DNA of 24,000 bases from Georgenia sp. Z1491. GTDB taxonomy: Bacteria; Actinomycetota; Actinomycetes; Actinomycetales; Actinomycetaceae. A model generated the notes under the pieces. That model did not search any database. It saw only the letters and a list, made by a program, of their open reading frames with translations, and had not been told where the DNA came from. Position numbers and translations under genes: made by a program. The DNA lies in NCBI RefSeq assembly GCF_049856175.1, contig NZ_JBNDNA010000018.1, positions 19,355 through 43,354 on the forward strand, written 5' to 3'. This document shows, piece after piece, positions 5,746 to 23,597 of this stretch. Position 1 is the first letter of the stretch; each line of letters starts with the position of its first letter.

Positions 5746-5773
5746 TTGATTAATCCAGGATCCTGGATATTCT
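5746..5773 (+). promoter_or_regulatory. Sigma-70-like promoter (TTGATT, 16-nt spacer, TATTCT) with a perfect 16-bp palindrome ATCCAGGATCCTGGAT (5753-5768) filling the spacer
   Basis: Read directly from the sequence. It is the most AT-rich stretch in the region and lies 28 nt upstream of the yhfZ-like ATG. Confidence 0.5.
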
Positions 5774-5800
5774 CTCTCCGTGGTGTCGACGGAGATTCTC

Positions 5801-6694: not shown

Positions 6695-6717
6695 TCCCCG
6701 CCCCCAAGGAGTCCCGA

Positions 6718-7475: not shown

Positions 7476-7477
7476 CC

Positions 7478-8875: not shown

Positions 8876-9813
8876 GCATGCCCGGCACGACGACGATCCG
8901 CACCGTCTCGGGCCCGGTGGCCGCCTCGGCGGTCGCCGGCCCGGTCCTCGCCCACGAGCATCTCGCGCTCGACCTGCGCACGGGCGACGACGCCGAGGGT
9001 TTCCTCGCCCACGAGGACGCGGTCACCGCGGAGCTCGCACGGGCAGCCGACGCGCACGGACTGGCGCTCGTCGTCGACCAGACGGCGCGCGGGATGGGGC
9101 GGGACGTCGCCGTCCTCGCCCGGATCTCCGCCGGCTCGGGGGTCGACGTCGTCGCCGCCACCGGCTGGTACTACGCGAGGTTCCATCCGGACGGAGAGCC
9201 GGGTGACGACGTCGGGAGGGCGACGGACCTCCTGCTCGCCGACCTGCTCGAGGGCATCGACGGGACCGGCATCCGGGCGGGCGTGGTCGCCGAGATCGGT
9301 ACCCACGCCGAGGAGCCGACACCCGCGGAGTCGATCGGTCTGCGTGCCTCCGCGCGGGCCGCCTGCCGCGCCGACGTCTCGCTCGCCACGCACGCCCACC
9401 TGGGCACCGGCGCGCGCGCCCAGCTCGACCTGCTGCTGAGAGAGGGCCTCGACCCCGCCCGGATCGCGATCGGCCACCAAGACCTCAGCGCGGACGAGGA
9501 CCAGCAGGACGAGCTGCTCGCCGCCGGCTGCTACCTCTCCTTCGACACGGTCGGCAAGGAGTCCTACCGCCCCGACGACGCCCGCCGCGCCCGCATCCTC
9601 GCGCTCGTCGAGTCCGGGTACGGCGGCCGGCTGCTCCTCAGCAACGACATCTCCCGGCACGCCTACCTCGCGTCCGAAGGAGGCCAGGGCTACGGGCACG
9701 TCCTGGGACCGTTCGCCGACTCGCTGCGATCCTTGGGGCTGGAGATCGACGACATCGACAGGCTCTACCGGCGCAACGCGCTCCGCTGGCTGACGGGGGT
9801 GGGGACCAGATGA
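8872..9813 (+). CDS. php: Phosphotriesterase-homology protein (Php/YhfV; amidohydrolase superfamily)
   Basis: Metal-ligand motifs LAHEHLALDL, HAHLG, IGHQD and LLLSNDI. GTGA overlap with the yhfT-like stop. ATG at 8878 is an alternative start. Confidence 0.85.
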   Translation: MSMPGTTTIRTVSGPVAASAVAGPVLAHEHLALDLRTGDDAEGFLAHEDAVTAELARAADAHGLALVVDQTARGMGRDVAVLARISAGSGVDVVAATGWYYARFHPDGEPGDDVGRATDLLLADLLEGIDGTGIRAGVVAEIGTHAEEPTPAESIGLRASARAACRADVSLATHAHLGTGARAQLDLLLREGLDPARIAIGHQDLSADEDQQDELLAAGCYLSFDTVGKESYRPDDARRARILALVESGYGGRLLLSNDISRHAYLASEGGQGYGHVLGPFADSLRSLGLEIDDIDRLYRRNALRWLTGVGTR

Positions 9814-10940
9814 CCACGAGACCAGAGCTGCCGGCCACAACGCCGCTGCCCGTGATGGACGCGGACGGAGCGTTCGACCTCCAGCAGCGGCTCGTCGAGG
9901 CGATGTGCGAGGAGATGCCGGGCGCTGCGCCGTTCGAGGCCGACGCCGGCGTGCGCCCACCGCTGGGTCGACCCGGAACGACGGCCGGCGTCGAACGCGT
10001 CCTCGCCCGCGCGTTCGGCGGAAAGGCGGCGTGCCTCGTCCAGGGCGCAGGGACCGGCGCCATCCGCACGGCACTGTCCGCCGGGCCCTGGCGGTCGGGC
10101 GTCCGCCGTCTCCTCGTCCACGATGCCCCGGACTACACGACGACGGCGCAGACCTTCGCGGACGGGTGCGTCGAGACCGTGCGGGTCGACATGGGCGACG
10201 ACGACGCCCTGCGGGCGGCGCTCGCCGGCTCGGGCGACGACGCCTGGGTCTACGTCCAGCACACGCGCCAGAGGCTCGAGGACGCGTTCGACCCAATGGC
10301 GGTCGTGCGTCTCGCGGTGCAGCACGGCCGGCGCGTGATCGTCGACGACAACTACGCGGTCCTGCGCACGCCGAGCATCGGCGTCGAGCACGGGGCCGCT
10401 GCCTCGGCCTTCTCGCTGTTCAAGCTGCACGGGCCGGAGGGGGTGGGCGTGGTGGTCGGGGACGCTGACCTCGTCGACGCCGCCCACGCGGCCAACTACT
10501 CCGGCGGCGGCCAGGTCCAGGGCCATCAGGCGCTCGAGGCGCTGCGCGCGCTCGTCACCGTCCCGCTCGCCTGGGCTGCGCAGGCCCGGGAGGCCGCCCG
10601 GCTCGCCGAGCTCCTCGACGCCGGCCACGTGCCGGGCGTGGTCGGCGCGCGGCTCGCGAACGCCCAGGACCTGTGCGTGGTGGCACTGCTCGAGGAACCG
10701 GTCGCCGACGCGGTGCGCGCGGCGGCCGCGCAGCTCGGTGCCGCCCCGTACCCGGTGGGCTCGAACTCGCGCTACGAGATCGCCCCGATGATCTACCGGC
10801 TGTCCTCCTCCGCACTGGACTCCAGGCCCGACCTGCGGGAGTGGACGCTGCGCATCAACCCGATGCGGGCGAGCGCCGAGCTCACCGCCCGTCTCGTGCG
10901 TCGCGCGCTCGACCAGGTGGGGGGACGCCATGTTTCTTGA
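9810..10940 (+). CDS. yhfS: YhfS-like PLP-dependent enzyme (fold-type I, aminotransferase/C-S lyase-like)
   Basis: Candidate PLP-lysine context AFSLFKLHGPEGVGVVVG. 376 aa. ATGA overlap with the php stop. Confidence 0.7.
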   Translation: MTTRPELPATTPLPVMDADGAFDLQQRLVEAMCEEMPGAAPFEADAGVRPPLGRPGTTAGVERVLARAFGGKAACLVQGAGTGAIRTALSAGPWRSGVRRLLVHDAPDYTTTAQTFADGCVETVRVDMGDDDALRAALAGSGDDAWVYVQHTRQRLEDAFDPMAVVRLAVQHGRRVIVDDNYAVLRTPSIGVEHGAAASAFSLFKLHGPEGVGVVVGDADLVDAAHAANYSGGGQVQGHQALEALRALVTVPLAWAAQAREAARLAELLDAGHVPGVVGARLANAQDLCVVALLEEPVADAVRAAAAQLGAAPYPVGSNSRYEIAPMIYRLSSSALDSRPDLREWTLRINPMRASAELTARLVRRALDQVGGRHVS

Positions 10941-12105
10941 CGCGTTGCTCCGGCGAAACCCGCTCCTGGTCGACGCTGCCGCCCAGCTGCACGCCGACGG
11001 TCGGGTCGAGGCCGATACCTACGTCGTCGACGCCGATGCCGTCGAGGCCAACGCCGCCGCCCTCGCGAGCGTGGCCGCGGAGCACGGGGTCACGGCCTGG
11101 TTCGTGGTCAAGCAGCTCGGGCGCAACCCGGCGCTCGCCGCCCGGATCGCCCGTCACCTGCCCCGCGCCGCGGCCATCGACCTGCGGGAGGCTCGGGTCC
11201 TGCGTTCGGCCGGCGTCGAGCTGGGCAACGTCGGGCACCTCGTACAGATCCCGGTCCGTGCCCTCGACGAGGCGCTCGCCTGGCGCCCGTCGCACGTGAC
11301 CGTCTACGACCGCGCGAACCTCGCGGCCGTGGCTGCCGCCGCGGAACGCGCCGGGATCGTCCAGGACGTGCTCCTGCGGATCGCGGGGGATCCAGCTTCG
11401 ACCTACCCGGCGCAGGAGGGCGGCATCGACCTCGCGGACGTGGCCGTACTGCTCGAGGAGTCCGACCGGATGGCGGCGGTGCGGGCCGTCGGCGTCACCG
11501 GGTTCCCGTGCGTGCTGCTCGCCCCGGACACGGGGGAGCCGCGGCTGACGCCGACCGGTGAGCTCGTCGAGGCTGCGGCAGGCGTTCTTCGCGACCGGGG
11601 GATCGATCCGGTGGTGTCGATGCCGAGCCTGTCCAGCTGCTCGACGATCCCCGTCCTCGCTGCGCACGGCGCCACCCACGTCGAACCCGGGCACGCGCTG
11701 ACCGGCACGACACCGGAGCACGCCCGCCGCGACGACCTCCCCGAGGTCCCCGCCATGGTCTACATCTCCGAGCTCGCACGCACCGAGCCGGATGCGGCTG
11801 TACTGGGCGGCGGCTTCTACGCGCGCGGTCACGCCGAGCACGCGCTCATCGACCCGCGCGGCGCCGCCGTGCGGGGGCGCCTGATCGGCACCCCGCCGGA
11901 GAACATCGACTACTACCGACGCCTCGGCCTCGAGGCGGGCGACCGGGAGCGGGTGCGGCTCGGCGACACCGCCGTCATGGCGTTCCGGACCCAGATCTTC
12001 GCCACGCGTTCCCGGGTCGCCGTCGTGTCCGGCGCCGCCTCAGGCACTCCGGTGATCGACGGGATCTACGACAGCCTGGGTACGCGGATCGAGGCCGGAC
12101 AATGA
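10930..12105 (+). CDS. yhfX: YhfX-like alanine-racemase-fold PLP enzyme (predicted amino-acid racemase)
   Basis: N-terminal VVKQLGRNP, a PLP-lysine context of the alanine racemase N-terminal domain fold. 391 aa. 11-nt overlap with the upstream gene. Confidence 0.7.
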   Translation: MFLDALLRRNPLLVDAAAQLHADGRVEADTYVVDADAVEANAAALASVAAEHGVTAWFVVKQLGRNPALAARIARHLPRAAAIDLREARVLRSAGVELGNVGHLVQIPVRALDEALAWRPSHVTVYDRANLAAVAAAAERAGIVQDVLLRIAGDPASTYPAQEGGIDLADVAVLLEESDRMAAVRAVGVTGFPCVLLAPDTGEPRLTPTGELVEAAAGVLRDRGIDPVVSMPSLSSCSTIPVLAAHGATHVEPGHALTGTTPEHARRDDLPEVPAMVYISELARTEPDAAVLGGGFYARGHAEHALIDPRGAAVRGRLIGTPPENIDYYRRLGLEAGDRERVRLGDTAVMAFRTQIFATRSRVAVVSGAASGTPVIDGIYDSLGTRIEAGQ

Positions 12106-13355
12106 CGGTGACGATCCTCGTCGTCGACGGCCTGGGCATCGGAGCCATGCCGGACGCCGGCGAGCTGCGGCCAGGCGACGTCGAGGCCGACACGATCGGC
12201 CACGTGGCCGGCTGGTCGCTGCGCGAGCGCGGTCGACCGCTGGACGTCCCACATCTGGCGGCGCTCGGGCTGGCGGCGCTGCGCCCGGACCTGGGGGAGA
12301 CGGTCGAGGCTGGGACCGGGGACGGCCCGACCGGGCTGCCGGCCAGCCTGCGCGCGATGGCGTACCGGGTCGCCCTCGGCTACCCGGGTGCCGACACGTT
12401 CGCGGGCCACCAGACGATGATGGGCGCGGACATGTCGCACGTGGTGCTGTGCCCTCTCGCGGACCGGATCGACGCGGTCGCGGCCGCGCTGTGGTCGGCG
12501 GGCCACCGTGTCGAGCGCCTGGACGGGCAGGCGCTGCTCATCGTGGACGGAGCCGCGCTCGTCCACGACAATCTCGAGGCCGACCCGGGCCTCAACTGGA
12601 ACGTCTCGTGCCGGCTGGACGACCTGCCGTTCGAGGAGATCGTGGCGATCACCCGCGTGGTGCGCGGCGTCGCGCCGGTGGCGCGGGTCATCGCGGTCGG
12701 CGGGCGGTCGGACGGTCCGCTGGAGGAATTTGTGCGTGACGGCGACTTCGGCGTGGTCGGGATGGACACTCCTGCGTCGGGTTTCTACCGCAACGGCGGG
12801 CTCGAGGTGCTGCATCTCGGTGCGCCGATCGATCACTCCAGTCAGCTCCCGCAGGTGGCCGCGGCCCACGCGAAGCAGGTGACCCTCATCGGCAAGGCTG
12901 CGGACATCCTCGAGTGCGACCTTCCGGTGGAGAGGCGACCCGGTGTCGACACCGCCGACGTCCTGCGGTGGACGCTCGAGGCGCAGGGGCACGCCGATCT
13001 CGTGGTGGCCAACGTGCAGCAGACCGATCTGGCAGGGCACCAGCAGGACGTGGGGAGATATGCCGACCTGCTCGAGCAGGTGGACCGGGCGCTCGTCGAG
13101 CTGACTGCGGGGCTGAGCGGCGAGGACCTGCTCGTCGTCACCGGGGACCACGGCAACGACCCGACTATCGGGCACGGATATCACACGCGTGAGTACGTGC
13201 CGGCGCTCGTCGTGGAATCACGGTCCGGGACCGACCGCGGAACGGAACGGAGCGCGGCGTCGGCAGCCGCTGACCTTGGGTCGCTCCGTGAGGTCGGTGA
13301 GCTGTCCGCCCACCGGTTGGGAATCGACGAGCCGGGCTCGGTCCGCCGCGCATAG
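12102..13355 (+). CDS. yhfW: YhfW-like phosphopentomutase/metalloenzyme-superfamily protein
   Basis: ILVVDGLGIGAMPDAG at the N-terminus and VVTGDHGNDPTIGHGYHTREYVP near the C-terminus (DeoB-type metal-site motifs). ATGA overlap with the upstream gene. Confidence 0.8.
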   Translation: MTVTILVVDGLGIGAMPDAGELRPGDVEADTIGHVAGWSLRERGRPLDVPHLAALGLAALRPDLGETVEAGTGDGPTGLPASLRAMAYRVALGYPGADTFAGHQTMMGADMSHVVLCPLADRIDAVAAALWSAGHRVERLDGQALLIVDGAALVHDNLEADPGLNWNVSCRLDDLPFEEIVAITRVVRGVAPVARVIAVGGRSDGPLEEFVRDGDFGVVGMDTPASGFYRNGGLEVLHLGAPIDHSSQLPQVAAAHAKQVTLIGKAADILECDLPVERRPGVDTADVLRWTLEAQGHADLVVANVQQTDLAGHQQDVGRYADLLEQVDRALVELTAGLSGEDLLVVTGDHGNDPTIGHGYHTREYVPALVVESRSGTDRGTERSAASAAADLGSLREVGELSAHRLGIDEPGSVRRA

Positions 13356-13438
13356 ACCTCAGAGCCAGGTCAGGTTGGACTCATATTCCAGTCGAATCGC
13401 TGTCGTTCTTACGGCAGCGCACCGGAGGGAGTTCCGTC

Positions 13439-13837
13439 ATGGTGGCCGCACGCTCGGCGCACGGCAGCCGATCCGTTGCCTCCTCGAACGAGGGCAGGCA
13501 GCGTCCGGAGGACTGGACCGTCGCCCAGATCGTCGAGCATCTGAGCGACAACCTCGGTCCGAAGGTGGTCGCCTACATGGTGGGCAAGAGCCCCCAGACC
13601 GTGTCGCGCTGGGCCGAGGAGAAGCAGCGTCCCCCGCAGCCTGACGTCGAGCGCAAGCTCCGCGGCGCCCTCCAGATCTTTCAGCATCTCGTTGAGCGGG
13701 ACTCTCGGCACGTCGCGCGCGCGTGGTTCATCGGCATGAATCCGCAGCTCGAGGACCGCAGCCCCACCGAGGTCATCGCAGACGGAGACGTCCGTGCCGC
13801 GATGGCTGCAGCTCGCGCGTTCTCCACCGGGGGATGA
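13439..13837 (+). CDS. Xre/MbcA/ParS-type antitoxin (HTH plus DUF2384 toxin-binding domain)
   Basis: C-terminal ARAWFIGMNPQLEDRSPTEVIADGDVRAAMAAARAF fits the DUF2384 pattern. N-terminal HTH VAYMVGKSPQTVSRWAEEK. GGAGGGAG RBS. Confidence 0.75.
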   Translation: MVAARSAHGSRSVASSNEGRQRPEDWTVAQIVEHLSDNLGPKVVAYMVGKSPQTVSRWAEEKQRPPQPDVERKLRGALQIFQHLVERDSRHVARAWFIGMNPQLEDRSPTEVIADGDVRAAMAAARAFSTGG

Positions 13838-14082
13838 GCCCTCGCGAGCCCCGCACGGTTGACGCCCCGGACCAGGTGTGGCGCGCGGCCCGGTTGGGGA
13901 TGGGCGACGAGCTGCGGAGCCCGACCCACGGGTCCCGGGTCCCCCTGCTCGGGCCGAGCGTCGGAGCTTGCGGGTCCATCGTCGATCGCGCCGCACTCGC
14001 CGCAGCGGCACCTGAGTGGGTGCTGGCTGTCGGGGCGCGAGGCTGCTCGGCAGGGGTGTTGTTGTCCGGCGGCCGCTACTGA
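13834..14082 (+). pseudogene. Possible truncated or degenerate RES-domain toxin remnant (82 codons)
   Basis: ATGA-coupled to the antitoxin, which is the expected toxin position. VWRAARLG..DELRSPTHGSR resembles the RES N-terminal region up to the conserved Arg, but the ORF is less than half the usual length and ends inside repeat element B. Confidence 0.3.
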
Positions 14083-14190
14083 TTTCGGTGTGGTCGTTAG
14101 CTTCGTTGTCAATATCGGTGTGATCAACAGCGTCGTCCGACGACGAACACCCCTGTCCGCCGCGAGGAGCAGCCTCGCAGTCGGGTGGGA
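14054..14190. repeat. Copy B of the roughly 140-bp intergenic element (core 14073-14139)
   Basis: Aligns with 4545-4680 in the same orientation. The internal palindromic 10-mers of copy A are degraded here (tcgttgtcaat / atcaacagcg). Confidence 0.7.
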
Positions 14191-14224
14191 AACTCTGCCC
14201 CGCCTCCGATGACGGCAGCCGGTG

Positions 14225-14504
14225 TTACTGAACGTGCGTCCGCAGCGGGTTGACGACTGTGACGCCTCGGAGGACGGACCCCTCGGCGAGGTCCTCCGTC
14301 CAGAGCTCCGCGCAGCCCGCTTCGCTCGGCCGGGAGTGCGGGCGCGAGCTTTCGCGTGAGAACGACATACAGCTCGAGGAGGACCTGTGTGCTGACGACG
14401 AAGTCCCGGTCCTCACCGATCGCCGCTCGAGCGGCTGCCTGCTTGCCGGGCGAGGCCGAGTCGTAGAGGTAGGCGAGGATGTTGGTGTCGAGGAAGACCT
14501 CACA
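14225..14504 (-). pseudogene. vapC: VapC-type PIN toxin with an internal deletion/frameshift and no usable start codon
   Basis: One frame reads VFLDTNILAYLYDSASPGKQAAARAAIGEDRDFVVSTQVLLELYVVLTRKLAPALPAE. Around 14315-14335 the PIN C-terminus AGCAELWTEDLAEGSVLRGVTVVNPL continues in a different frame. The two parts total about 89 aa against a usual length of about 130. The central region with the conserved Asp is missing. Confidence 0.6.
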
Positions 14505-14730
14505 CGTCGTAGAGGTCGTCTCGACGCCATCCGCGCTCGCCGTCTCCGCTCGCCGAGTCGTGCTCGAGCGCCATTGCGAGGAGGGACTCGATGGCCGAGG
14601 TGTCGTCGGCGCGCGCGTACCGCTCGAGGACGTCCGACAGGTACTTGTTGACGGACTCGTTGCGCTGCAACGCGCGAATCCTCGCCCGACGCAGCACGTC
14701 GGGGTCGACGGAGAGAGTCAGCGTGACCAC
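14500..14730 (-). CDS. vapB: Ribbon-helix-helix (CopG/VapB-type) antitoxin
   Basis: VVTLTLSVDPDVLRRARIRALQRNESVNKYLSDVLERY is a typical RHH N-terminus. The stop abuts the PIN remnant. GTG at 14730 is preferred; TTG at 14778 is an alternative start. Confidence 0.7.
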   Translation of the reverse strand: MVTLTLSVDPDVLRRARIRALQRNESVNKYLSDVLERYARADDTSAIESLLAMALEHDSASGDGERGWRRDDLYDV

Positions 14731-14782
14731 GCCAACCAGTGTGGCACTGGTCCAGTGCTGAACGAGCGACTGCGTCAAGCAG

Positions 14783-14805
14783 AAGTCCGCTCACTCGCCG
14801 GAGAG
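14783..14805. repeat. Solitary copy of the 23-bp GC-rich unit (aagtccgctcactcgccggagag)
   Basis: About 19/23 identical to unit 2194-2216 (cagtccgttcactcgccgggagg), followed by a degenerate G-rich tail to about 14830. Confidence 0.5.
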
Positions 14806-14893
14806 GGGGTCGCCAGAGAGGGGGTGGGTGGGGACCTCTGACGGGGGAGCGCTGCCACTACGCAGGACTCCGCGCACCTCCTACTGTCAGGCC

Positions 14894-15511
14894 ATGACGC
14901 CGCCCCCGACGCCCACGCGCCACCGATGGCGCCAGCCCGTGCTGGGCCTGGCCGTCGGGATGGTGTGCGCCGTCGTCGCCTTCCTGCTCCTCGGCCTCGT
15001 CCGCGACGCCCGGGCGGACGAGCACGTCACCGGATATCGCCTGAGCGACGAGGACGCGCTCGCGCCCGGCCCGGTCTCGCTCGTCTCGGTGCGGGACGTC
15101 CGTCAGCCGTCGTCGGTCCCAGGTCTCGCAGCACCGACGGGCGACCGCTACATCACCCTCGTCGTCGCGATCGAGGGCGACGTCGGCGCTACCGCAGACA
15201 CCCCCACCGACACCCCCACCGACGACGACACCCCCACCGACGACACCCCCACCGAGGAGTGGATCGACCTCGACGGCCTGGAGCTCACCCTCTACGCCGT
15301 CGACGACTCGGGCGAGCGCGAGGAGCTCGTCCCCACCGACCGCGGCCGGCGCACGCTCGACGGCATCGGCGGCGAGGTCCGCAGCATCGACCCGTACTGG
15401 ATCCGCGCCGGCTACGAACCCCCGTCCGGCGACGCCGAGCACTACGAGATGGACATCGTCGTCGACGGGGAGCAGTACACGCTCGCCGCCCGCACGGAGG
15501 AGCAGGAATGA
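14894..15511 (+). CDS. Hypothetical single-pass membrane-anchored protein with a (TPTD)n linker
   Basis: ATG at 14894. Transmembrane segment VLGLAVGMVCAVVAFLLLGLV. G/C-rich third positions. Stop overlaps the next start (ATGA at 15508). The acidic TPTDTPTDDDTPTDDTPTEE stretch is encoded by a 12-bp microrepeat at 15197-15253. Confidence 0.65.
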   Translation: MTPPPTPTRHRWRQPVLGLAVGMVCAVVAFLLLGLVRDARADEHVTGYRLSDEDALAPGPVSLVSVRDVRQPSSVPGLAAPTGDRYITLVVAIEGDVGATADTPTDTPTDDDTPTDDTPTEEWIDLDGLELTLYAVDDSGEREELVPTDRGRRTLDGIGGEVRSIDPYWIRAGYEPPSGDAEHYEMDIVVDGEQYTLAARTEEQE

Positions 15512-16104
15512 CCGACGACGACGCCCCCACCCCCGCCCCCACCCCCGCCCCCACCCCCGCAGCCGGAACGCGAGCCGCCACCTCCCGCACCCTCTTCTGG
15601 GCCACCGCGACCCTCACCTTCGTCCTGGCCCTCACCGTCCTGGTCCTGCTCCCGCGTGGCGGCGCAGCGGCACCGGCCGCCGCGGGCGAGGAGGTGAGCG
15701 CCGAGCTGACGGACGGCGTGACCGTCACCGTCCTGCCAGAGCTGCGGGACCTCGGCTGGCGCGCGGCCTCCTCGACCCGCCCGTACGCGCTCGACCTCCG
15801 CCTGACGATCACCAACGACTCCGAGGACCTCTTCCCGCGCTGGTACCGCGTCGAGGTGTTCGAGGCCAGCAACGTCGTCGAGGGCGAGGACCTGGGGGAG
15901 CGGCTGACCGGCAGCCTGCAGACCGCGCACGTCCCCGCGGGCGGGCAGGCGTCCACCGACCTGTCCTACTTCCACGACCGGCCGTGCGGTGAGTTCGTCG
16001 CCCGGATCTCCTACCGGCTCACCCTCGAGGCCGACGACGAGCAGACCGACGTCGACATCCCCATCCGCGTCGGGGACGAGGAGTGCCTGGCCGAGCGCGA
16101 ATGA
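15508..16104 (+). CDS. Hypothetical single-pass membrane-anchored protein with a (PTPA)n N-terminus and a beta-rich ectodomain
   Basis: MTDDDAPTPAPTPAPTPAAG, then transmembrane segment LFWATATLTFVLALTVLVLL, then an alternating beta-like pattern (LDLRLTITNDSEDLF...). 12-bp repeat in 3 copies at 15523-15558. Confidence 0.65.
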   Translation: MTDDDAPTPAPTPAPTPAAGTRAATSRTLFWATATLTFVLALTVLVLLPRGGAAAPAAAGEEVSAELTDGVTVTVLPELRDLGWRAASSTRPYALDLRLTITNDSEDLFPRWYRVEVFEASNVVEGEDLGERLTGSLQTAHVPAGGQASTDLSYFHDRPCGEFVARISYRLTLEADDEQTDVDIPIRVGDEECLAERE

Positions 16105-16135
16105 GTACGCCGACCTGGCCCCGTCGGGCGCCGGC

Positions 16136-17275
16136 TCACCCGCCTCTGGGTACCACCGGCTGCGTCCCCCGCGCCCGCAGCCACCTCTCGGCCGGGTGCT
16201 CGACCAGCGAGTACAGCGCCCACGCCGCCGCCTGGGACAGCGCGAGCAGCGCCACCCACTCCAGCGCCACGCCCACCCCGGGCGAGGTGAGCCCGAGCCC
16301 GTCGGGCACCACGTGGTTCCACGCCCGGATGACGGGCTCGTGGACGAGGTACCAGGCGTAGGACCACGCCCCGAGCCGGATGGACACGCGGTCGCGCACG
16401 AGTGTGGCCCGCCCGTCGATGTCGTGCTGCGCGGCGGCCACGATGAGCAGGGCGAACACCGGCGTCGACCACCACTGCGACCCGGAGTACGGCCCGAACC
16501 CCGCCTCCCCGCCGGAGACCCGCTCCCACGGCACCATCGCGGCGTGGAAGGCGACCACCAGCACCACGGCCGGCCAGTACCCCACGGGGGAGCGCCCGCC
16601 CCGACGCACCACCACGGCGCACAGCACCCCGATCACGAACTGCACGAGCCGCGACGGCGGGAAGTAGTCGAGCCAGAACCCCTCCCAGCCGACGGTGCCG
16701 AACACCCACCACAGACCGAGGAGCACGACGCCGCACCCCACCCACAGCGCCCCTCGCCACCGCCTGCCAGCCGCCGCGATGGCGAGGAGCGCGGGGAAGA
16801 GCAGGTAGAAGAAGGCCTCGTCGCTCAGCGACCACGACGCCGGGTTCGCCCCGTCCTCCCACAGCGGGTGCCAGGCCTGGAGGAAGAGGAACGTCGTCGC
16901 GGACTCCCACACCCCCGGCAGCTCGTCGATCCACCAGTAGATCGCCAGCGAGATCGCGCCCGTCGCCGCGACGAGCGGCCACAGCCGCGCGAACCGCCGC
17001 CACATGAAGACGCCGAACCCCACGGGTCGGTCGAGGTAGGTCCACGCGAGCACGAACCCGGACAGGACGAAGAAGAACGTCACGCCCGTGCGGCCGAACG
17101 CGGTGAGGTAGCTGAGCACCGGCACCTCGCCGACCTGCGCGCTCAGGTGGTACATCACCACGAGCAGCGCCGCCCAGAACCGCAGCCCCGTCAGCGAGTG
17201 CAGGCGCGACGGGAAGTCACGCCCGACGGCAACCGCGCGCCCGCCGCCCCCACCGGTCCCGCTCGCACTCGACAC
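16136..17275 (-). CDS. Acyltransferase family 3 (OafA/YrhL-like) membrane protein
   Basis: LTGLRFWAALLVVMYHL...GVTFFFVLSGFVLAW is the acyltransferase-3 N-terminal signature, and the protein is polytopic. GTG at 17275 is chosen as the start; GTG at 17338 is possible. The track start at 17566 would cover the divergent gene. Confidence 0.8.
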   Translation of the reverse strand: MSSASGTGGGGGRAVAVGRDFPSRLHSLTGLRFWAALLVVMYHLSAQVGEVPVLSYLTAFGRTGVTFFFVLSGFVLAWTYLDRPVGFGVFMWRRFARLWPLVAATGAISLAIYWWIDELPGVWESATTFLFLQAWHPLWEDGANPASWSLSDEAFFYLLFPALLAIAAAGRRWRGALWVGCGVVLLGLWWVFGTVGWEGFWLDYFPPSRLVQFVIGVLCAVVVRRGGRSPVGYWPAVVLVVAFHAAMVPWERVSGGEAGFGPYSGSQWWSTPVFALLIVAAAQHDIDGRATLVRDRVSIRLGAWSYAWYLVHEPVIRAWNHVVPDGLGLTSPGVGVALEWVALLALSQAAAWALYSLVEHPAERWLRARGTQPVVPRGG

Positions 17276-17362
17276 GAGCGGACACGTTACGGGCGCGCCG
17301 CCCGCGCCGCAGGATCGGCGGCCCGGAGCACCGCCCACCGAGCGGCCACCTACCCTGGACCC

Positions 17363-17743
17363 ATGCCCCGACGCCGCATCGACCCCACGATCGGGCTCGC
17401 CGCCGTGCGGGCCTGGCAGGAGGACCCGGACTCGATGTCCCGGGCCGACCTCATGACGGCGGTGCGGTTCACCCTCGAGGAGCTGGCGATCTCCTCCCCG
17501 GGCGGGGCGCTCGAGGTGCGGGTCCCACCGGCCGGCGCGGTCCAGGCCATCGCGGGCCCGCGGCACACCCGGGGCACACCCCCAGGCGTGGTGGAGACGG
17601 ACCCGGCCACGTGGCTCGCGCTCGCGAGCGGCGACCTCGACTGGGGCACGGCGGTGAGCGAGAGTTGGGTCTCGGCATCGGGGGAGCGGGCCGATCTCGG
17701 CGCGTGCCTGCCGCTCGTGCGCCGGGGTAGGTTCAGCCAGTGA
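17363..17743 (+). CDS. Sterol-carrier-family protein (bacterial SCP orthologue type)
   Basis: VRFTLEELAISSPGGALEVRVPPAGAVQAIAGPRHTRGTPPGVVETDPATWLALASGDLDW...SASGERADL matches my recollection of the actinobacterial sterol carrier family. ATG at 17363. Confidence 0.7.
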   Translation: MPRRRIDPTIGLAAVRAWQEDPDSMSRADLMTAVRFTLEELAISSPGGALEVRVPPAGAVQAIAGPRHTRGTPPGVVETDPATWLALASGDLDWGTAVSESWVSASGERADLGACLPLVRRGRFSQ

Positions 17744-18246
17744 CGCAGCACGACCCCTCCGGCACCTCCGGCGAGCCGGAGCACCACGCCCCCGACGACG
17801 ACGCGCCCCCGCCCGCCGCCGACCCCACGGCGCGCACCGAGGACCTCGCGGGTGAGAGCGACCAGGCCGCCGAGTCCGACGCCGACGCCCCGGACGACAC
17901 CTCCGACGCCGAGCCAGAGCCCGAGCCGACCCGAGCGACGACGGTCGGCCACGTGCGCGCCGCCCCGCGGTACGGCCGGTTCATGTGGACCGGGTTCCTG
18001 CTGGGGATCCTCGTGAGCATCTTGCTCGTCGTGTTCACGGAGGGCCAGTCGTTCGGCGACGACTACGCCGACGACGTCGGGGGCAGTCAGTTCTTCACCG
18101 ATCGCCTGAGTGATTCGAACGCCATCGGTCTGCTCGTCCTCACGCTGGGCCCGCTGGGCATCCTGCTGGGTGCGTTCGTCGCGTACCTGCTGGACCGCCG
18201 CTCGCTGCGCCGCCGCGAGCGCGCGACCAGGGGGCTCACGGAGTGA
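17740..18246 (+). CDS. Hypothetical membrane protein (acidic Pro/Asp-rich N-terminus, two transmembrane segments)
   Basis: GTGA overlap with the upstream stop. Transmembrane segments FMWTGFLLGILVSILLVVF and IGLLVLTLGPLGILLGAFVAYLL. Basic tail RRSLRRRERATRGLTE. Confidence 0.65.
   Translation: MTQHDPSGTSGEPEHHAPDDDAPPPAADPTARTEDLAGESDQAAESDADAPDDTSDAEPEPEPTRATTVGHVRAAPRYGRFMWTGFLLGILVSILLVVFTEGQSFGDDYADDVGGSQFFTDRLSDSNAIGLLVLTLGPLGILLGAFVAYLLDRRSLRRRERATRGLTE
18158..18242 (+). repeat. Left copy of an 85-bp direct repeat (the 3' end of the 17740-18246 gene)
   Basis: 78/85 identical to 19758-19842 at an offset of exactly 1600 bp. Mismatches at 18168, 18192, 18214, 18222, 18229, 18231 and 18240. 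Confidence 0.9.
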
Positions 18247-18356
18247 TCGCGAGCATGGTGTGTGCCCGTTCGGCCGTGGAGTCTCTGCCGGATAGTTGGT
18301 GAGAGCGTGACCCGCACCGGGTCGCGGCCCCGACGATGCTGGTTGACGCGAACTCG

Positions 18357-18935
18357 TCAATCGATCAGGTTGGGCGCCACCAAGGCTCGGCAGTGTGCGT
18401 GGACCCGATCGGCAAACTCGTCGCAGCCCGCCTGCGCCAGTGCATGCCAGATCGATCGTGGGTTCATCTTCGCCCGCCAGTAGTTGAACTGCTTCAGCGC
18501 GACAGCCTGGACGATCCGAGGCGTCGAGTCATCGACAAGGCAGAAGAACTCGTCTGGAGTACTGATCTCGTAGCGGTCGTCTTCGATCTTCAGGTAGGAC
18601 GAATCGTTGGTGAGGACGAGATCGATCTCGCCCGCGACGGCCGCGGCATGGATGTGCCCGTCGTTCGCGTCGGCCCCGGCGAAGTCCGATAGGTGCGGAT
18701 ACTCGGCGATCACGGTGTCAGTTGACTCGCGGAGCAGTTGCGAGAGGCGGTGAATCACTGCGCCGTCGACTCCCCGATTGTTCCGCCTGAGGTGGTATGT
18801 CACTTCGGACACGATGTCTTCGGTGGTGTGGAGCGTGAACATTCCGCCACCCGAGGCGTCACGAAGGAGGAACAGCCAGTCACGAACGGTCTTGCTGTTG
18901 AGGACATTGCTGTCCGGCAGCACCTTCGTGATCAC
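18357..18935 (-). CDS. PIN-domain protein (toxin-like, 192 aa, with a roughly 60-aa C-terminal extension)
   Basis: VLPDSNVLNSKTVRDWL (first acidic PIN motif) and DANDGHIHAAAVAGEIDLVLTNDSSY (C-terminal PIN motifs). GTG at 18935 lies 28 nt after the upstream stop. The track start at 19055 overlaps the HTH gene. Confidence 0.8.
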   Translation of the reverse strand: MITKVLPDSNVLNSKTVRDWLFLLRDASGGGMFTLHTTEDIVSEVTYHLRRNNRGVDGAVIHRLSQLLRESTDTVIAEYPHLSDFAGADANDGHIHAAAVAGEIDLVLTNDSSYLKIEDDRYEISTPDEFFCLVDDSTPRIVQAVALKQFNYWRAKMNPRSIWHALAQAGCDEFADRVHAHCRALVAPNLID

Positions 18936-18963
18936 CCATCCAGCGTAGCTGCCGACGCCGACG

Positions 18964-19398
18964 TCACTCCCGAATGCCGTGTTCCTCTTCCAGGTCGCGC
19001 AGCTCGGCAAATGCGTCGCGCTGGCGGCTCGAGCGTGCCGACCGGAACTCGACAACGTCCGCTGATCGCAGTCGAGTGTGCGAGCCGACCTGGTGGCTTG
19101 CCAGGTCGCCGTTGCGAATGTGCTTCATGAGGGTCGGGCGCGAGATGCCGAGCATCCGGGCCGCCACCGTCGTCGACACGACTTCGGGCACGGACTGAAA
19201 GGTGACATCTGCGCCAGAGGCGATCGCCTCGATCGCCTGCCGAAGGAACTCCGACAGGGCGGGCTCCAGGGTGACGGCGTCGCGACCTCGTGCGGAGGTG
19301 ATCATCTCGAGGGTCTGTCCGTCACGTGGTGGCAGCTCCGAGACGAACTGCCGCGCCTCGCTGCGCACCTCGTCGGAGACAGTCATGGTGTCAGGCAC
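18964..19398 (-). CDS. Excisionase-family (MerR-like) HTH DNA-binding protein, putative antitoxin of the PIN gene
   Basis: VSTTVAARMLGISRPTLMKHIRNGDLASHQVGSHTRLRSADVVEF is the excisionase-type HTH. GTG at 19398 lies 5 nt after GAGGAG. Confidence 0.8.
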   Translation of the reverse strand: MPDTMTVSDEVRSEARQFVSELPPRDGQTLEMITSARGRDAVTLEPALSEFLRQAIEAIASGADVTFQSVPEVVSTTVAARMLGISRPTLMKHIRNGDLASHQVGSHTRLRSADVVEFRSARSSRQRDAFAELRDLEEEHGIRE

Positions 19399-19460
19399 GG
19401 TCGCTCCTCATCTCCACAACGCCGCTCGCTCTGCGTGCCGTGGACCAACAGTGTCCAACT

Positions 19461-19478
19461 TTGCACTCGTAAGTGCAA
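19461..19478. promoter_or_regulatory. 18-bp palindrome TTGCACTcgtaAGTGCAA, a candidate autoregulatory operator of the HTH-PIN operon
   Basis: Perfect 7-bp arms with a 4-bp spacer, about 63-80 nt upstream of the HTH start on the minus strand. Confidence 0.45.
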
Positions 19479-19711
19479 CCCCGGATCGACTCCGCGAGGG
19501 ACCAGATTGGCGCGCCCGAAGGCCGCGCGCACCGCTCGGCAAGAGAAGGCGCAGCTGCCGCTACCAGCTCGCCCCGCCGTCGGCGGACACGAGCGTCTCC
19601 TCGCCCGCCCACAGCCACATGGCGTCGCCTGCGCCGGCCACGGCGGTCTGACCGGCCTCGGGGTCGGCGCCCTCGGCGGACCCGGCGAGCTCGACACCAC
19701 TGGAGCGTGAG

Positions 19712-19894
19712 TCCGGCGACGACGATGCCGTGCTTCTCGGGCCGGGTATCCTCGCGAGCATCCTGCTCGGTGCGTTCGTCGCGTACCTGCTCGACCGCCG
19801 CTCGCTGCGCCGCGGCGAGCGGGCGACCCGCGGGCTCACCGACTGGCCTTCGGACGTTCCGCGCGACACCGTGCTCGTCGTATGCCACAGTTGA
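19712..19894 (+). pseudogene. Start-less 3' fragment homologous to the end of the 17740-18246 gene
   Basis: Translates to SGDDDAVLLGPGILASILLGAFVAYLLDRRSLRRGERATRGLTDWPSDVPRDTVLVVCHS*. No in-frame ATG, and the frame is closed upstream at 19649-19651. Contains the right copy of the 85-bp repeat (19758-19842). Confidence 0.6.
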
Positions 19895-19951
19895 GGCGCC
19901 GGCGACAAGAGGCCAGCGCGATCTCTTCCCTTGAGGGGATAGCCGGCGCAC

Positions 19952-20611
19952 TCATGCCACGCCCCATGGCCTAAAGATCGACTTCACCAGTGGAGCTACG
20001 TCCTCCTCGTAGTTCTTCAACGGTGCGCCACGTAGATGGCGGTGGGCGGCCCACAGGGCATAGTCAGCGACCTGCAAGCCCCATGACGTCGCCGCCGGCC
20101 ACACGCACAACGTGATTTGTTGGCTCATCTGGCTGACGACGTCTCGAACTGCCGCCATCGCCGCTGTCTTGCGCGCCTTGGTGCCGATCGACCCGGTGAC
20201 GACGTACAGGTGATCCTCAGGACGGGCGACGTTCTCGCAGATGTGCCTGAGGTGCAGGAACCAGGCGTATTTGTGCATCCACATCTCGCCGCGCTCCTTC
20301 ACGTCGGGGTACGCACCAGACTTCAGCAAGAAGGTCGTGTCGATCCGCGGTCGCTGGTCACTGAGCAGGGCAAACATGCTGTTGCGGACTTCCCAGGTGT
20401 CGTACTTCGCGTGAAAGCCCTTCGACATGTCGATGCCTCGACCGGATAGCGCGGCGCGGAGGACGTGACCGTCCCTGATCTCCAGGCTGTGATCTCCCTG
20501 GAAGATTGCCGAGCCGAAGCCGAAGTAGTCGCTGGCGCCGTCCTTGCCTGCCCCCGCGTAGTCGAGGTTGCCGGTCTCGTCGGCATAGACGAAGACGTCG
20601 GCGCCGTTCAT
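19952..20611 (-). CDS. DUF3800-family protein
   Basis: N-terminal VFVYADETGN (DESG-like motif) and C-terminal WGLQVADYALWAAHR (the LQxAD motif typical of DUF3800). ATG at 20611 with AGGA 9 nt upstream. The track extension to 20842 is unsupported. Confidence 0.75.
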   Translation of the reverse strand: MNGADVFVYADETGNLDYAGAGKDGASDYFGFGSAIFQGDHSLEIRDGHVLRAALSGRGIDMSKGFHAKYDTWEVRNSMFALLSDQRPRIDTTFLLKSGAYPDVKERGEMWMHKYAWFLHLRHICENVARPEDHLYVVTGSIGTKARKTAAMAAVRDVVSQMSQQITLCVWPAATSWGLQVADYALWAAHRHLRGAPLKNYEEDVAPLVKSIFRPWGVA

Positions 20612-20856
20612 GTGCGGGCGTCCTGGTTGGTCCGCGCGCAGTCGTTGGTGATCACCCTGCGAGTATGAGTAACACGCCCGACGTGATGACGCGCAGCCGT
20701 TGAGTCGGATCACGCAGGGCACTCGAGGAGGCCTGATGTGCAGGCGGCCACCCAGCCTGCGCGACCATGAAGCCGCTGCCGTTCGCGGTGCGGATGTGCG
20801 AGTTGACAGCCCCGCGTGCGGGCGAAGCCAATTGCTGGTCATTCTCTTGACGTCGA

Positions 20857-21687
20857 CTATTGCTGCTGCCCACCGTGCGCGTCGGACGTCCCTTGCCGGA
20901 CCATGTATTCGAGGAGCAGTAGCTCGGGGTCGCGCGTGCGCTCGGTATGCAGCGCTCGGCTGATGCCATGCGCGGTGGCACGCACCGCTGGGCGAGCGTT
21001 GTCAGCCAGAGCGCTGTCGCGCGGAACGAGGACCGAGACCGCCGCGACGACCTCGTCGTGCTGATCGCGGATCGGGGCGGCGAGTCCCGTGACGTCCGGG
21101 TGGATCCATCCCTCGATCGCGCACACGCCGGAACGGCGACCGGCCTCGATGGCCGCCCAGATGTCATCGGTGCGGGTCGGGGACGCGGAGGTGAGCGGCC
21201 GAGGGATCGCGCCGAGGATGGCCTCCCGCTCGGCGTCGGTCCCGAATGCTGCGAACACGATGCCGGCGGAGCAGGTGGCAGCCGGAAGCCTCCCGGCCAG
21301 TTTGAGGATGCTGATGGCAGTCGGCTCGGGCGCTCGGAGATTCTCGATGTAGACGACGTCTGTTCCTCGGAGGACCGACAGTTGCGTGTGCTGCCGGACG
21401 GCTGATTGCAGCCCCTCGAGGAACGGCAGCGCGCGGTCCCGGAGTTCGGTCTGGGGTGAGTTGCGTACGGCCAGCTCCCACAACCGCAGCCCGATCCTGA
21501 TGCGCCGTGTGTCGGTCCGTTCCAGGAGCTCCCACCGAATGAGCTCATTGACGATCCGGTGAGCGCTCGGGATCGGCAGACGACTGGAGCGCGCGATCGC
21601 AGCGACGCTGAGCTCCGACTCGTCGCTCTGAAACGCCTCGAGGACTCTGACGACGCGTGAGATCACGGACTCTCCGGGCGTGGCCAT
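20857..21687 (-). CDS. IclR-family transcriptional regulator
   Basis: SVISRVVRVLEAFQSDESELSVAAIARSSRLPIPSAHRIVNELIRWELLER is the IclR wHTH, and the C-terminal effector domain has the typical length. ATG at 21687 lies after GGAAGGA. Confidence 0.9.
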   Translation of the reverse strand: MATPGESVISRVVRVLEAFQSDESELSVAAIARSSRLPIPSAHRIVNELIRWELLERTDTRRIRIGLRLWELAVRNSPQTELRDRALPFLEGLQSAVRQHTQLSVLRGTDVVYIENLRAPEPTAISILKLAGRLPAATCSAGIVFAAFGTDAEREAILGAIPRPLTSASPTRTDDIWAAIEAGRRSGVCAIEGWIHPDVTGLAAPIRDQHDEVVAAVSVLVPRDSALADNARPAVRATAHGISRALHTERTRDPELLLLEYMVRQGTSDAHGGQQQ

Positions 21688-21718
21688 GAGCAAGATCCTT
21701 CCGATGAGTGAGAGGTTC

Positions 21719-21749: not shown

Positions 21750-21938
21750 GTATCGCTCAGCAAGAGATTGGGTGGCGCGGCCTCGGTTCGACAGGGATGC
21801 TCACGGCCAAGTAAGGACGCGCTATCCCCGTCGTGAGCAGGCGGCGCACGAAGCGTGGCCGGTGAGTCACAGACAACCCGTCGGAGAGTGCCGCGCGCAG
21901 GGCGGGGTGGCGCTCAGAACGCAGAGCGAGGAGACGCA

Positions 21939-23597
21939 GTGGTGGGAGAACGGGATGGCACGTCCGGGGCACCGACGCCAGAGGTCGACGTCCTCGTCGT
22001 TGGAGCTGGTCTGTCCGGGCTGTACTCGCTGTACAGCCTGCGGAAGGCGGGCTTCACCGTCCGGGTGCTCGAGAGCGGCGACGACGTCGGCGGCACCTGG
22101 TACCACAACCGGTACCCAGGAGCTCGGTGCGACATCGAGAGCCTCGACTACTCCTACTCCTTCGACGAGGACCTCCAGCAGGAGTGGACGTGGAGCGAGC
22201 GTTATGCGAGCCAGCCCGAGATCCTCTCCTACCTCCGGCACGTCGCCGAGCGGTTCGACCTCCGCCGCGACATCGAGCTCCGGACCCGCGTCGACCACGC
22301 CTCGTGGCACGACGCCATCGCCCGCTGGTCGATCTCCACGGACGACGGTTGGTACTACTCGGCGCAGTTCCTTGTCCTCGCGACCGGGGTGCTCTCGGCG
22401 GCCCAGTTGCCCGACATTCCCGGGCTGTCCGAGTTCGCCGGCGAGCGCTACCACACCGCCGACTGGCCGCACGAGGGAGCGGACCTCACGGGCAAGCGGG
22501 TCGGTGTCATCGGCACAGGTTCGTCGGCCACTCAGCTCATCCCGCTCGTCGCCGAGGACGCTGCACACCTGACGGTCTTCCAGCGCACACCCAACTTCGT
22601 GATGCCGGCGCAGAACCACCCTCTCGACGACGAGTTCCAGAACCGCTGGAAGGCGAGCTACCCCGAGCGGCGCCGTCACGCGCGCACCACCAAGAACGGT
22701 CACAACCAGCCGAGCAACGTCGCCCGTGGAGCGGACGTGAGCGCGGCGGAGCGGCGGGCCGAGTTCGAGAGCCGCTGGCAGTCCGGCGGGCTCTACATGA
22801 TGCGCGCCTTCACGGACATCCTCACGAACCCGGACGTCAACGCCGAAGCAGGCGACTTCGTGCGGGACAAGGTTCGGAGCATCGTCGACGATGAGGAGAC
22901 CGCCGAGCGACTGCTCCCGCCCCGGGACCTTCACCTCGGCACGAAGCGCCTCTGTTCAGGCACGAACTATTTCGAGACGTTCAACCGGCACGACGTCTCT
23001 CTCGTTGACCTCAGGTCGACGCCGATCGGCCGCGTCGTGCCCGAAGGCCTCCGCACCGCCGACGGCGTGGTCCACGAACTTGACGCCCTCGTCCTCGCCA
23101 CCGGGTTCGACGCCATGACCGGGTCGTTCGTACGAATCGATGTTCGTGGCCGCGACGGCCAGACCCTGCGCGAGAAGTGGTCTCACGGCCCGCGCACCTA
23201 CATGGGTGTGATGACCCACGGGTTCCCCAACCTCTTCGTCATGGCCGGCCCGCAGACGCCGTCGGTCTTCAGCAACATGGTGACGCAGGCGGAGATCCAC
23301 GTCGAATGGGTGACCGCGTGCCTCGAGGCGCTCCGGAGCGCGGGTGACACCACCATCGAGCCCACCCTCGAGGCCGAGGACGGCTGGGTCGACCACGTCA
23401 ACGACCTCGCCGCATCGACTCTCTACGGCAGCTCGCGGCATTCGTGGTTCTGGGGAGCCAACACACCGGGCAAGGCGCGGGTCTTCGCCCCCTACGTCGG
23501 CGGCATCGACCGCTACCTCGCCACCGTCACGGAGTCCGCCGAGCACGGCTACTCCGGGTTTGTCCGCCGCGGTCTGTCGACCGCGGCCCACCGATAG
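21939..23597 (+). CDS. Baeyer-Villiger (type I flavin-containing) monooxygenase
   Basis: VVGAGLSG, GGTWYHNRYPGARCD, the BVMO fingerprint FAGERYHTADWP, and a second Rossmann motif VGVIGTGSSA. GTG at 21939 lies 5 nt after GAGGAG. The upstream part of the track ORF lacks RBS support. Confidence 0.9.
   Translation: MVGERDGTSGAPTPEVDVLVVGAGLSGLYSLYSLRKAGFTVRVLESGDDVGGTWYHNRYPGARCDIESLDYSYSFDEDLQQEWTWSERYASQPEILSYLRHVAERFDLRRDIELRTRVDHASWHDAIARWSISTDDGWYYSAQFLVLATGVLSAAQLPDIPGLSEFAGERYHTADWPHEGADLTGKRVGVIGTGSSATQLIPLVAEDAAHLTVFQRTPNFVMPAQNHPLDDEFQNRWKASYPERRRHARTTKNGHNQPSNVARGADVSAAERRAEFESRWQSGGLYMMRAFTDILTNPDVNAEAGDFVRDKVRSIVDDEETAERLLPPRDLHLGTKRLCSGTNYFETFNRHDVSLVDLRSTPIGRVVPEGLRTADGVVHELDALVLATGFDAMTGSFVRIDVRGRDGQTLREKWSHGPRTYMGVMTHGFPNLFVMAGPQTPSVFSNMVTQAEIHVEWVTACLEALRSAGDTTIEPTLEAEDGWVDHVNDLAASTLYGSSRHSWFWGANTPGKARVFAPYVGGIDRYLATVTESAEHGYSGFVRRGLSTAAHR

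Follow-up and report, generated by a model that had tools for sequence, protein, structure and literature searches.

A direct repeat of a gene 3' end around a putative toxin-antitoxin pair in Georgenia sp. Z1491 as a plausible scar of recombination between related chromosomes

The locus described here raises the question of how the 3' end of a small membrane-protein gene came to be present twice, on either side of a pair of small genes, and whether the two copies mark the ends of a mobile element. The analysis covered a stretch of 24,000 nucleotides of the Georgenia sp. Z1491 genome (the window). The repeat search recovered the direct repeat reported in an earlier note on this DNA, at the same offset of 1600 bp, and extended it from 85 to 88 nt, with copy A1 at 18158-18245 and copy A2 at 19758-19845 (91% identity, 8 mismatches). 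The match is far beyond chance: blastn of this region against all other parts of the window gives an E value of 5e-31, and the runner-up repeats measure 20-37 nt. A1, on the forward strand, comprises the final 29 codons and the first two stop-codon bases of an intact gene (17740-18246, forward strand; hereafter mem), and copy 1 had correctly been called a gene 3' end. The ORF list, the homologues and the C-terminal alignment all define mem as a gene for a membrane protein of 168 aa with two transmembrane (TM) helices. It belongs to no Pfam family; 12 other homologues were found, and the identity to Georgenia sp. Z1344 is 70%. The tail of the protein, ERATRGLTE, is typical for the family, and the close relatives in the alignment all stop directly after RGLT and one further residue (E, D or G). 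The gene upstream (17330-17743, forward strand) encodes an SCP_3, bacterial sterol-carrier-like protein (PF17844, E 2e-37) and is the conserved upstream neighbour of mem, the two being adjacent in the relatives L001, L002, L008-10, L016 and L017. A dip in GC within mem (0.62-0.69 at 17940-18120) is present in the orthologues too and is thus intrinsic to the gene.

A2 forms the core of a start-less mem remnant on the forward strand (19741-19845). The stretch 19741-19777 is similar to TM helix 1 of mem (81% to 18000-18036), with a score that 0.4% of shuffles reach, which means that the remnant either lost 141 bp in frame or has small indels in TM helix 2. Its 5' end is ambiguous, either TM1-like or TM2 with indels, and the remnant starts at mem nt ~261 or ~419. 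At the other end, the stop codon TGA of A1 is TGG in A2, and the frame reads through into the tail WPSDVPRDTVLVVCHS before it stops (19846-19894, forward strand). Copy 2 is start-less and has a longer tail, as had been noted; this tail is matched in none of the 12 other mem homologues and is probably non-coding. Neither the 54-aa ORF (19730-19894) nor a chimeric one of 115 aa on the reverse strand (19561-19908) should be annotated as a gene.

The differences between the copies lean towards synonymous change. Over the first 85 bp, the seven mismatches consist of six synonymous nucleotide changes in five codons and one change from R to G. The earlier count of six synonymous differences out of seven is right, but R to G is not the sole amino-acid change, since the base directly past the 85 bp adds a change from E to D; in total, the copies differ by six synonymous changes, two amino-acid changes and the lost stop codon. 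Under a random-mutation model, the probability of at least six synonymous changes in seven is 0.003, in line with the claim that both copies evolved as coding sequence. The support is weaker than claimed if A1 is taken to be constrained and A2 to drift in place (p = 0.04-0.11). The bias would fit orthologues that diverged while coding, and it is marginal against an in-place duplication. A1 and A2 are each other's best match (78/87), and the relatives are about equally distant from both (69-73/87). Parsimony at the eight mismatch positions with three outgroups finds derived states in A1 as well as in A2 and gives no polarity. A1 and A2 share at most 23 consecutive identical nt, which is short for a crossover within the repeat itself.

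The DNA between the copies holds a conserved two-gene module. A gene on the reverse strand (18357-18938) encodes a PIN_3-domain putative toxin of 193 aa (PF13470, E 3e-6, above the cut-off), and another on the same strand (18964-19398) encodes an HTH_17, excisionase-family DNA-binding protein of 144 aa (PF12728, E 4e-10; TIGR01764), which upholds the HTH and PIN calls made before. The HTH_17 gene is co-directional with the PIN gene and precedes it by 25 bp, and the same order recurs in the relatives L011, L013, L014 and L015. The acidic residues D9, E45, D93 and D112 of the PIN protein are invariant among 7 homologues; the protein has a conserved C-terminal extension of ~70 aa, and the classical VapC family PF01850 scores below the cut-off. 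In the partner, the excisionase/MerR-type HTH_17 domain occupies the C-terminal half. Tblastn located relatives of the pair on 20 plasmids, nearly all actinobacterial, with one annotated as VapC family; on a Curtobacterium plasmid, a transposase gene with an rve (integrase-core) domain adjoins the pair, and a gene for a TraG-type coupling protein is close by. Upstream of the HTH gene, two palindromes can be read from the sequence, TGGAC-n7-GTCCA (19441-19457) and TTGCACT-cgta-AGTGCAA (19461-19478), and these are candidate operators of the promoter of the pair. Judged by its domains and relatives, the module reads as an ordinary plasmid-type toxin-antitoxin (TA) pair, with the PIN protein as putative toxin and the HTH_17 protein as putative antitoxin and autoregulator, and we infer that it may serve as an addiction or stabilising module. 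PADLOC gave no defence-system match save a generic HTH one, an Rfam scan of 17600-20100 returned nothing relevant, and there are no terminal inverted repeats at the ends of the cassette.

The statement that the enclosed DNA holds the HTH/PIN pair alone proved wrong. Blastn, tblastn and a terminator scan identified a further fragment on the reverse strand (B'; 19541-19693), from the 3' end of a BNR-repeat gene. B' comprises the last 44 codons (132 bp), a stop codon (19561-19563) and a terminator-like hairpin (19551-19564). By blastn, B' is 81% identical to L002 (10488-10619) and to L006 and L007, and 79% identical to L001 (13563-13695); the tblastn match is confined to residues 340-379 of the 379-aa BNR protein. 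The remainder of the BNR gene, or a second copy of it, is absent from the 24-kb window. Comparison with relatives also revealed the empty site, as the mem and BNR genes stand stop-to-stop in L002, L006 and L007. B' is the 3' end of the gene that abuts the mem stop in relatives, which places the TA pair precisely between the two gene ends. The window runs from mem through the TA pair, the BNR 3' fragment, ~45 bp and the mem fragment into lower-GC DNA with DUF3800 and IclR genes. B' precedes the mem fragment, the reverse of the order in relatives, and this reversal together with the missing BNR remainder requires at least one non-homologous joint. The ~45 bp that join B' to the mem remnant (19694-19740, no strand assigned) fall outside the blastn and local-alignment matches, with no significant similarity to BNR or mem, and are presumed to contain an illegitimate junction; their translation SGDDDA aligns weakly in MAFFT with the mem loop motif LSDSNA. 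A 10-mer, TCGCGAGCAT, that occurs directly past the A1 stop and at the start of A2 was considered as a target-site duplication or microhomology and is treated as a chance match: in a local-alignment shuffle, 12% of shuffles reach the best observed score, and that score comes from another stretch (18321-18339 against 19711-19728), slightly above the 10-mer alone.

Examination of these neighbouring gene fragments changed the reading of the repeat. The arrangement could suggest a decayed site-specific integrative element that entered at the mem 3' end and brought a replacement end, with the repeats as attL and attR: gene-3'-end direct repeats bracket lower-GC DNA that encodes an excisionase-family HTH protein, relatives have empty sites, and a second genome likewise carries an intact mem plus a remnant. 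Yet a chromosomal BNR fragment lies at the right end of the segment, beside A2, whereas integration into mem, even with imprecise excision, would put that fragment directly after A1. The earlier proposal of a decayed island is not supported either, with the BNR fragment inside the bracket and ahead of the mem fragment, an order that att-type integration does not produce. The earlier remark that no integrase is present holds for the whole window, where 28 Pfam queries covering 27 ORFs matched no domain of an integrase, recombinase or transposase, and the HTH protein is always partnered with the PIN gene in its two-gene module and not with an integrase. In the second genome, that of Georgenia sp. 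Z1344, an intact mem is followed by three genes for polysaccharide biosynthesis, and a decayed mem remnant precedes BNR there. Its remnant begins at mem nt 226 and lacks nt 305-471, so that both breakpoint and cargo are unlike those of the window, which argues against a site-specific att. Taken together, these features make an integrative element quite improbable.

Base composition separates the parts of the locus. The cassette is indeed lower in GC (0.64), but the contrast had been overstated, as the flanking core lies at 0.72-0.78 and not at about 0.80, and the DNA to the right of A2 is low as well (0.61-0.68). B' and the mem remnant have core-like values (0.77 and 0.76) and are placed between two blocks of lower GC (0.64 and 0.66). 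On the right side of the remnant, Pfam identified a DUF3800 gene (19952-20620, reverse strand) as the first in the lower-GC DNA (0.61-0.66), then an IclR gene (20857-21693, reverse strand) and a flavin monooxygenase gene (21855-23597, forward strand). The DUF3800-IclR block has no similarity to the locus of any relative. An assembler might have misjoined the DNA of related strains that occurred together, one carrying mem-TA-BNR and the other mem-DUF3800, and a chimera of this kind would juxtapose orthologous sequences ~9% apart, as observed. We hold it to be highly improbable: the joint at 19694-19740 falls in sequence where the two partners are not similar, and hence offers no shared k-mer that could deceive the assembler, identical bases run to 23 in a row at most between the copies, and the scar in Z1344, an isolate genome, is independent and comparable.

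We consider it somewhat probable, and well short of certain, that the repeat is a recombination scar between two related chromosomes and not a pair of mobile-element ends. In one lineage, a plasmid-type HTH_17/PIN_3 pair would have settled between the converging stops of mem and BNR, which gives the order mem, TA pair, BNR. A piece of this chromosome that ended 132 bp inside the BNR 3' end would then have been joined to a chromosome in which mem was followed by DUF3800 and IclR. One end of the exchange would have been homologous, in or upstream of mem, and the other non-homologous at about 19694-19740, where the BNR fragment was fused to the 3' part of the mem of the other lineage. This would leave the TA pair behind an intact mem, then the stub of BNR, the start-less stub of mem and the downstream DNA of the other lineage, with the two mem ends as orthologues about 9% apart. 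B' with its terminator adjoins the TA pair, as a mem-TA-BNR donor would predict. The exchange could have proceeded by homology-facilitated illegitimate recombination of linear DNA; alternatively, the donor fragment could have closed into a circle and entered by one crossover within the 88 bp of homology. Both processes have been documented experimentally (PMC3240628), and such recombination has been given as the source of displaced gene 3' ends (PMC5361080). A mirror image, in which the mem stub came in together with the DNA on its right, would also give this order, and we infer both the direction of transfer and the mechanism from the arrangement of the parts. Sliding identity and GC against L001 and L002 detected no crossover point along SCP_3-mem because these two relatives are too distant. 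With respect to the earlier note, the start-less remnant beside an intact mem agrees with a replacement 3' end that displaced the original, while the discrete element of HTH and PIN genes alone is not borne out; its alternative, a TA cassette moved by homologous exchange, comes close to the explanation preferred here.

The order of the parts also bears on an in-place tandem duplication. A duplication of ~290 bp over the abutting 3' ends of mem and BNR would have given A-B'-A-B, and the TA pair and the DUF3800 block would have been inserted later and separately at the two stop-to-stop junctions. Its joint yields exactly the order of B' and then A, the site just past the mem stop is variable in many relatives, and the codon statistics (p = 0.04-0.11) leave room for one constrained and one drifting copy. 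However, three events are needed, two of them precise insertions at equivalent junctions. A divergence of 9% without indels over 88 bp of useless DNA would be unexpected, and so would the excess of synonymous changes; moreover, the second BNR copy is not within the window and the simple duplicated intermediate occurs in no relative. On balance, the duplication is unlikely, with some chance left to it.

As to recombination between lineages, no genome of the donor type (mem-TA-BNR) or of the recipient type (mem-DUF3800) was found in a clade whose sampling is very thin; the related genomes showed empty sites and a different insert. The search of genome contigs with mem gave two distant relatives only, metagenome scans with the BNR C-terminal peptide and with mem were both empty, and a homologue search with a 45-aa BNR peptide gave no candidate. 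The DNA past the mem stop differs in nearly every relative, and the position right after this stop is a synteny break in a poorly sampled actinobacterial clade. A broader and rather doubtful idea is that the 3' part of mem is a recurrent, recombinase-independent capture site in Georgenia-like actinobacteria, where cassettes bring a replacement end and displace the old one. If true, it would explain the intact mem, insert and in-frame mini-remnant in the window and in Z1344 alike, and the remnants might be kept as small membrane peptides or recombination anchors. The mini-remnants in both genomes combine a TM helix with an RRxERATxGL tail.

Collectively, the locus is a case of ordinary genome plasticity, and it cautions against defining a mobile element from nothing more than a short direct repeat of the end of a gene. 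It also offers a clean example, for the spread of toxin-antitoxin systems, of a plasmid-type pair embedded between two core genes, and the pair was apparently carried onward with its chromosomal flanks by recombination between lineages and not by mobility of its own.

The locus can be compared with three known systems. Elements that use the 3' ends of genes or tRNA genes as att sites share with it the gene-end direct repeats, the intact gene with a remnant, the lower-GC cargo and the empty sites. Unlike them, the window is without an integrase, the fragment of the neighbouring gene is wrongly placed for their mechanism, and the breakpoint is not conserved between the window and Z1344. The gene pair resembles type II VapBC-like modules in that two small genes run in one direction and the DNA-binding partner leads, and also in the intact PIN acidic residues, the palindromes upstream and the plasmid-borne relatives. 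In contrast to classical VapC (PF01850), the putative toxin is a PIN_3 protein (PF13470) of 193 aa with an extra conserved C-terminal region, and the partner of 144 aa differs from that of VapBC, as the C-terminal half of the protein is formed by an HTH_17 domain of the excisionase/MerR type. A likeness in layout also exists with systems that have displaced 3' ends, such as orphan Rhs and T6SS effector-immunity arrays, where an intact gene is likewise followed by new DNA and a start-less 3' fragment of the same family, with one homologous and one non-homologous side and no dedicated recombinase. While the documented recombination cases were established by experiment, the mechanism proposed for the window is read from anatomy. 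The window further differs from the Rhs and T6SS arrays in that its gene encodes a small housekeeping-type membrane protein instead of a polymorphic toxin, in that a single displaced fragment is present and not an array, and in that a fragment of the downstream neighbour was co-transferred, which exposes the event.

The window contains a direct repeat of 88 nt at 18158-18245 and 19758-19845 (91% identity, starts 1600 apart), which confirms its placement in the earlier note. All other repeats found in the window measure 20-37 nt, and blastn of the repeat region against the remaining window gave E = 5e-31. The first copy (A1) is the terminal part of a 168-aa ORF, mem (17740-18246), with two predicted TM helices and no family in Pfam or NCBIfam. 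Codon-by-codon comparison with the second copy (A2) identified six synonymous nucleotide changes spread over five codons, and the longest identical stretch is 23 nt. The R to G replacement, previously described as the only amino-acid change, is accompanied by E to D in the last codon, and the TGA stop codon of A1 reads TGG in A2. The two copies are each other's closest match (78/87), and relatives are all about equally distant from both. An inverted repeat with arms of 7-8 bp (CCGCTCGC...GCGAGCGG) lies in each copy (18198-18222 and 19798-19822); it is kept in relatives because the RRSLRRRER motif is encoded there, and it has no evident role as a recombination core. The 10-mer TCGCGAGCAT directly follows the A1 stop codon (18247-18256) and recurs at 19752-19761, overlapping the A2 start. 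This recurrence found no support in a local-alignment shuffle (the best score, itself from another stretch, was reached in 12% of shuffles) and is probably a coincidence.

Only 12 other homologues of mem are detectable, the nearest named ones being in Georgenia sp. Z1344 (70%) and an Actinomycetaceae MAG. The C-termini of close homologues all read ERATRGLT followed by E, D or G and the stop, and the tail of the second copy (WPSDV...) is in none of the mem homologues aligned. Comparison of the relatives' loci reveals that the SCP_3-mem pair is conserved (SCP_3-mem-RNB in more distant relatives) and that synteny breaks directly 3' of the mem stop codon. The empty site sought in relatives was found in the MAG (L002) and two Logan contigs (L006, L007), where the mem stop abuts the stop of a converging BNR-repeat gene with a gap of 0-1 bp. 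In Georgenia sp. Z1344 (L001), three polysaccharide genes (Bac_transf, PglD_N, and CapK_C), a frameshifted mem remnant, and then BNR follow the mem stop, and in a further relative (L005) unrelated low-GC DNA follows it. The decayed, frameshifted Z1344 remnant (L001 13405-13540) matches mem nt 226-304 (74%) and nt 472-510 (79%). The gene middle is lost from it, leaving the TM1 region with the tail RGLERATCGLAG, and it parallels the mem remnant of the window with different breakpoints.

Downstream of mem and A1, the window carries an HTH_17/PIN_3 cassette (18247 to ~19540), a 3' stub of the BNR gene on the minus strand (B', ~19541-19693), ~45 bp assigned to neither neighbor, a mem stub containing A2 (19741-19845), and then DUF3800, IclR, and flavin monooxygenase genes and the beginning of a lipoprotein gene, which by eye resembles a substrate-binding protein. 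Within B', 19561-19693 matches the BNR 3' end at 81% identity to L002, L006, and L007 and 79% to Z1344; the enclosed DNA is thus not confined to the HTH/PIN pair, as had been claimed. The tblastn alignment is confined to the C-terminal 40 residues of BNR (out of 324 or 379), with no further match to this protein anywhere in the window. The BNR stop codon at 19561-19563 survives in B', as does a terminator-like hairpin at 19551-19564, and both B' (0.77) and A2 (0.76) have core-like GC. The stub segment 19741-19777 is similar to mem's first TM helix (81%, blastn E 2e-4, and 0.4% of shuffles score as high), which would imply a 141-bp in-frame deletion; MAFFT alternatively aligns the stub with the second TM helix plus small indels, and its 5' limit is uncertain. 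Two ORFs cross this region: a 115-aa ORF (19561-19908, minus) runs antisense across the mem remnant and then through the genuine final 44 BNR codons, and a 54-aa ORF with a GTG start (19730-19894, plus) joins the mem remnant to a read-through tail. Both are mechanical artefacts of the scar, and their annotation should await expression data.

The GC of the cassette (0.64 over 18247-19540) is lower than that of the core to the left of the repeat (0.72-0.78 in sliding windows; 0.72 over 1-17329), as the earlier note proposed; to the right of copy 2, sliding windows give 0.61-0.68. An internal GC dip of mem is common to its orthologues. The DUF3800 gene (19952-20842, minus strand), absent from every relative's locus compared, lies right of the remnant in the lowest-GC stretch (0.61-0.65); its longest ORF reaches 74 codons 5' of the Pfam-matching part, and the true start is uncertain.

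At the empty site mem precedes BNR, whereas in the window B' precedes A2. Simple insertion of an incoming element into the mem 3' end, as previously suggested, therefore cannot produce the arrangement, and a joint between non-homologous sequences is required; the earlier observation was largely right, its interpretation only in part. The most economical account, which we consider slightly better than an even bet, is a scar of recombination between two parents. One parent would carry the HTH_17/PIN_3 pair exactly between the mem and BNR ends, and in the other, DUF3800 and its further neighbors would come after mem. Recombination, homologous at one side and illegitimate at the other, would join both arrangements and leave two orthologous mem ends within one chromosome. 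This account is favored because A1 and A2 match each other better than any relative and lie at similar distances from all relatives, because synonymous changes are over-represented among their differences (p = 0.003 if mutations were random), because Z1344 has the same scar type with another breakpoint and cargo, and because no recombinase was found. With A1 under constraint and A2 drifting in situ, the p value of the codon test rises to 0.04-0.11, so local tandem duplication with two subsequent insertions is kept as a rival, though an unlikely one. An att-bounded integrative element at the mem 3' end is very improbable: three defining features of such an element are absent here, since no recombinase was found in the ORFs tested across the window (in agreement with the integrase reported missing), the crossover point differs between the window and Z1344, and the bracketed cargo, with a BNR fragment inside, is not purely element DNA.

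The cassette comprises a PIN_3 protein gene (18357-18938, minus; PF13470) and, 25 bp upstream, an HTH_17/excisionase-family gene (18964-19398, minus; PF12728, TIGR01764), with two palindromes read 5' of the latter (19441-19478). Eight PIN homologues were found (best 58%), and the acidic residues D9, E45, D93, and D112, which the protein of the window keeps, are invariant in seven aligned homologues. A conserved C-terminal extension of ~70 aa past the PIN core (YE..TPD.FF.LVDD..P..V....Q..YW...C..FA.RV..H) has no Pfam assignment. The HTH_17 gene (140-146 aa) precedes the PIN gene in 4/4 loci examined; one adjoins an rve-domain (integrase-core) transposase gene on Curtobacterium plasmid CP126261, and another is on a contig bearing a TraG-type coupling protein gene. 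By tblastn, 20 plasmids match, nearly all actinobacterial, with one match annotated as a VapC family toxin. PADLOC matched only a generic HTH, and no Rfam element lies near the pair. Judged from sequence, the pair would work like a putative type II PIN toxin-antitoxin or addiction module, one that is rarely sampled.

Elsewhere in the window, ~8 kb (5388-13422) between MeaB and a 98-aa gene, missing from Georgenia Z1344, carries a yhfZ/yhfT/phosphotriesterase/yhfS/yhfX/metalloenzyme-type operon, which we take to resemble the E. coli yhf gene set, and is probably another accessory insertion. The 98-aa gene (13541-13834) shares 89% identity with the gene preceding a RES-domain toxin in Z1344. In the window (13541-13962), the RES toxin gene that follows it breaks off after its first 51 codons, so that the two resemble an orphaned antitoxin-like gene beside a truncated toxin; at the corresponding position the MAG carries AbiEi/AbiEii.

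For incoming linear DNA, homology-facilitated illegitimate recombination and circularisation plus single crossover are both documented outcomes (PMC3240628), and the same process has been invoked for strings of displaced gene 3' ends (PMC5361080). The locus has the anatomical features of such a recombination scar; no donor-type or recipient-type genome was found in genome-contig and metagenome searches. Collectively, it is a further example of known phenomena, combining a mosaic junction, located where synteny breaks, with an HTH_17/PIN_3 module.
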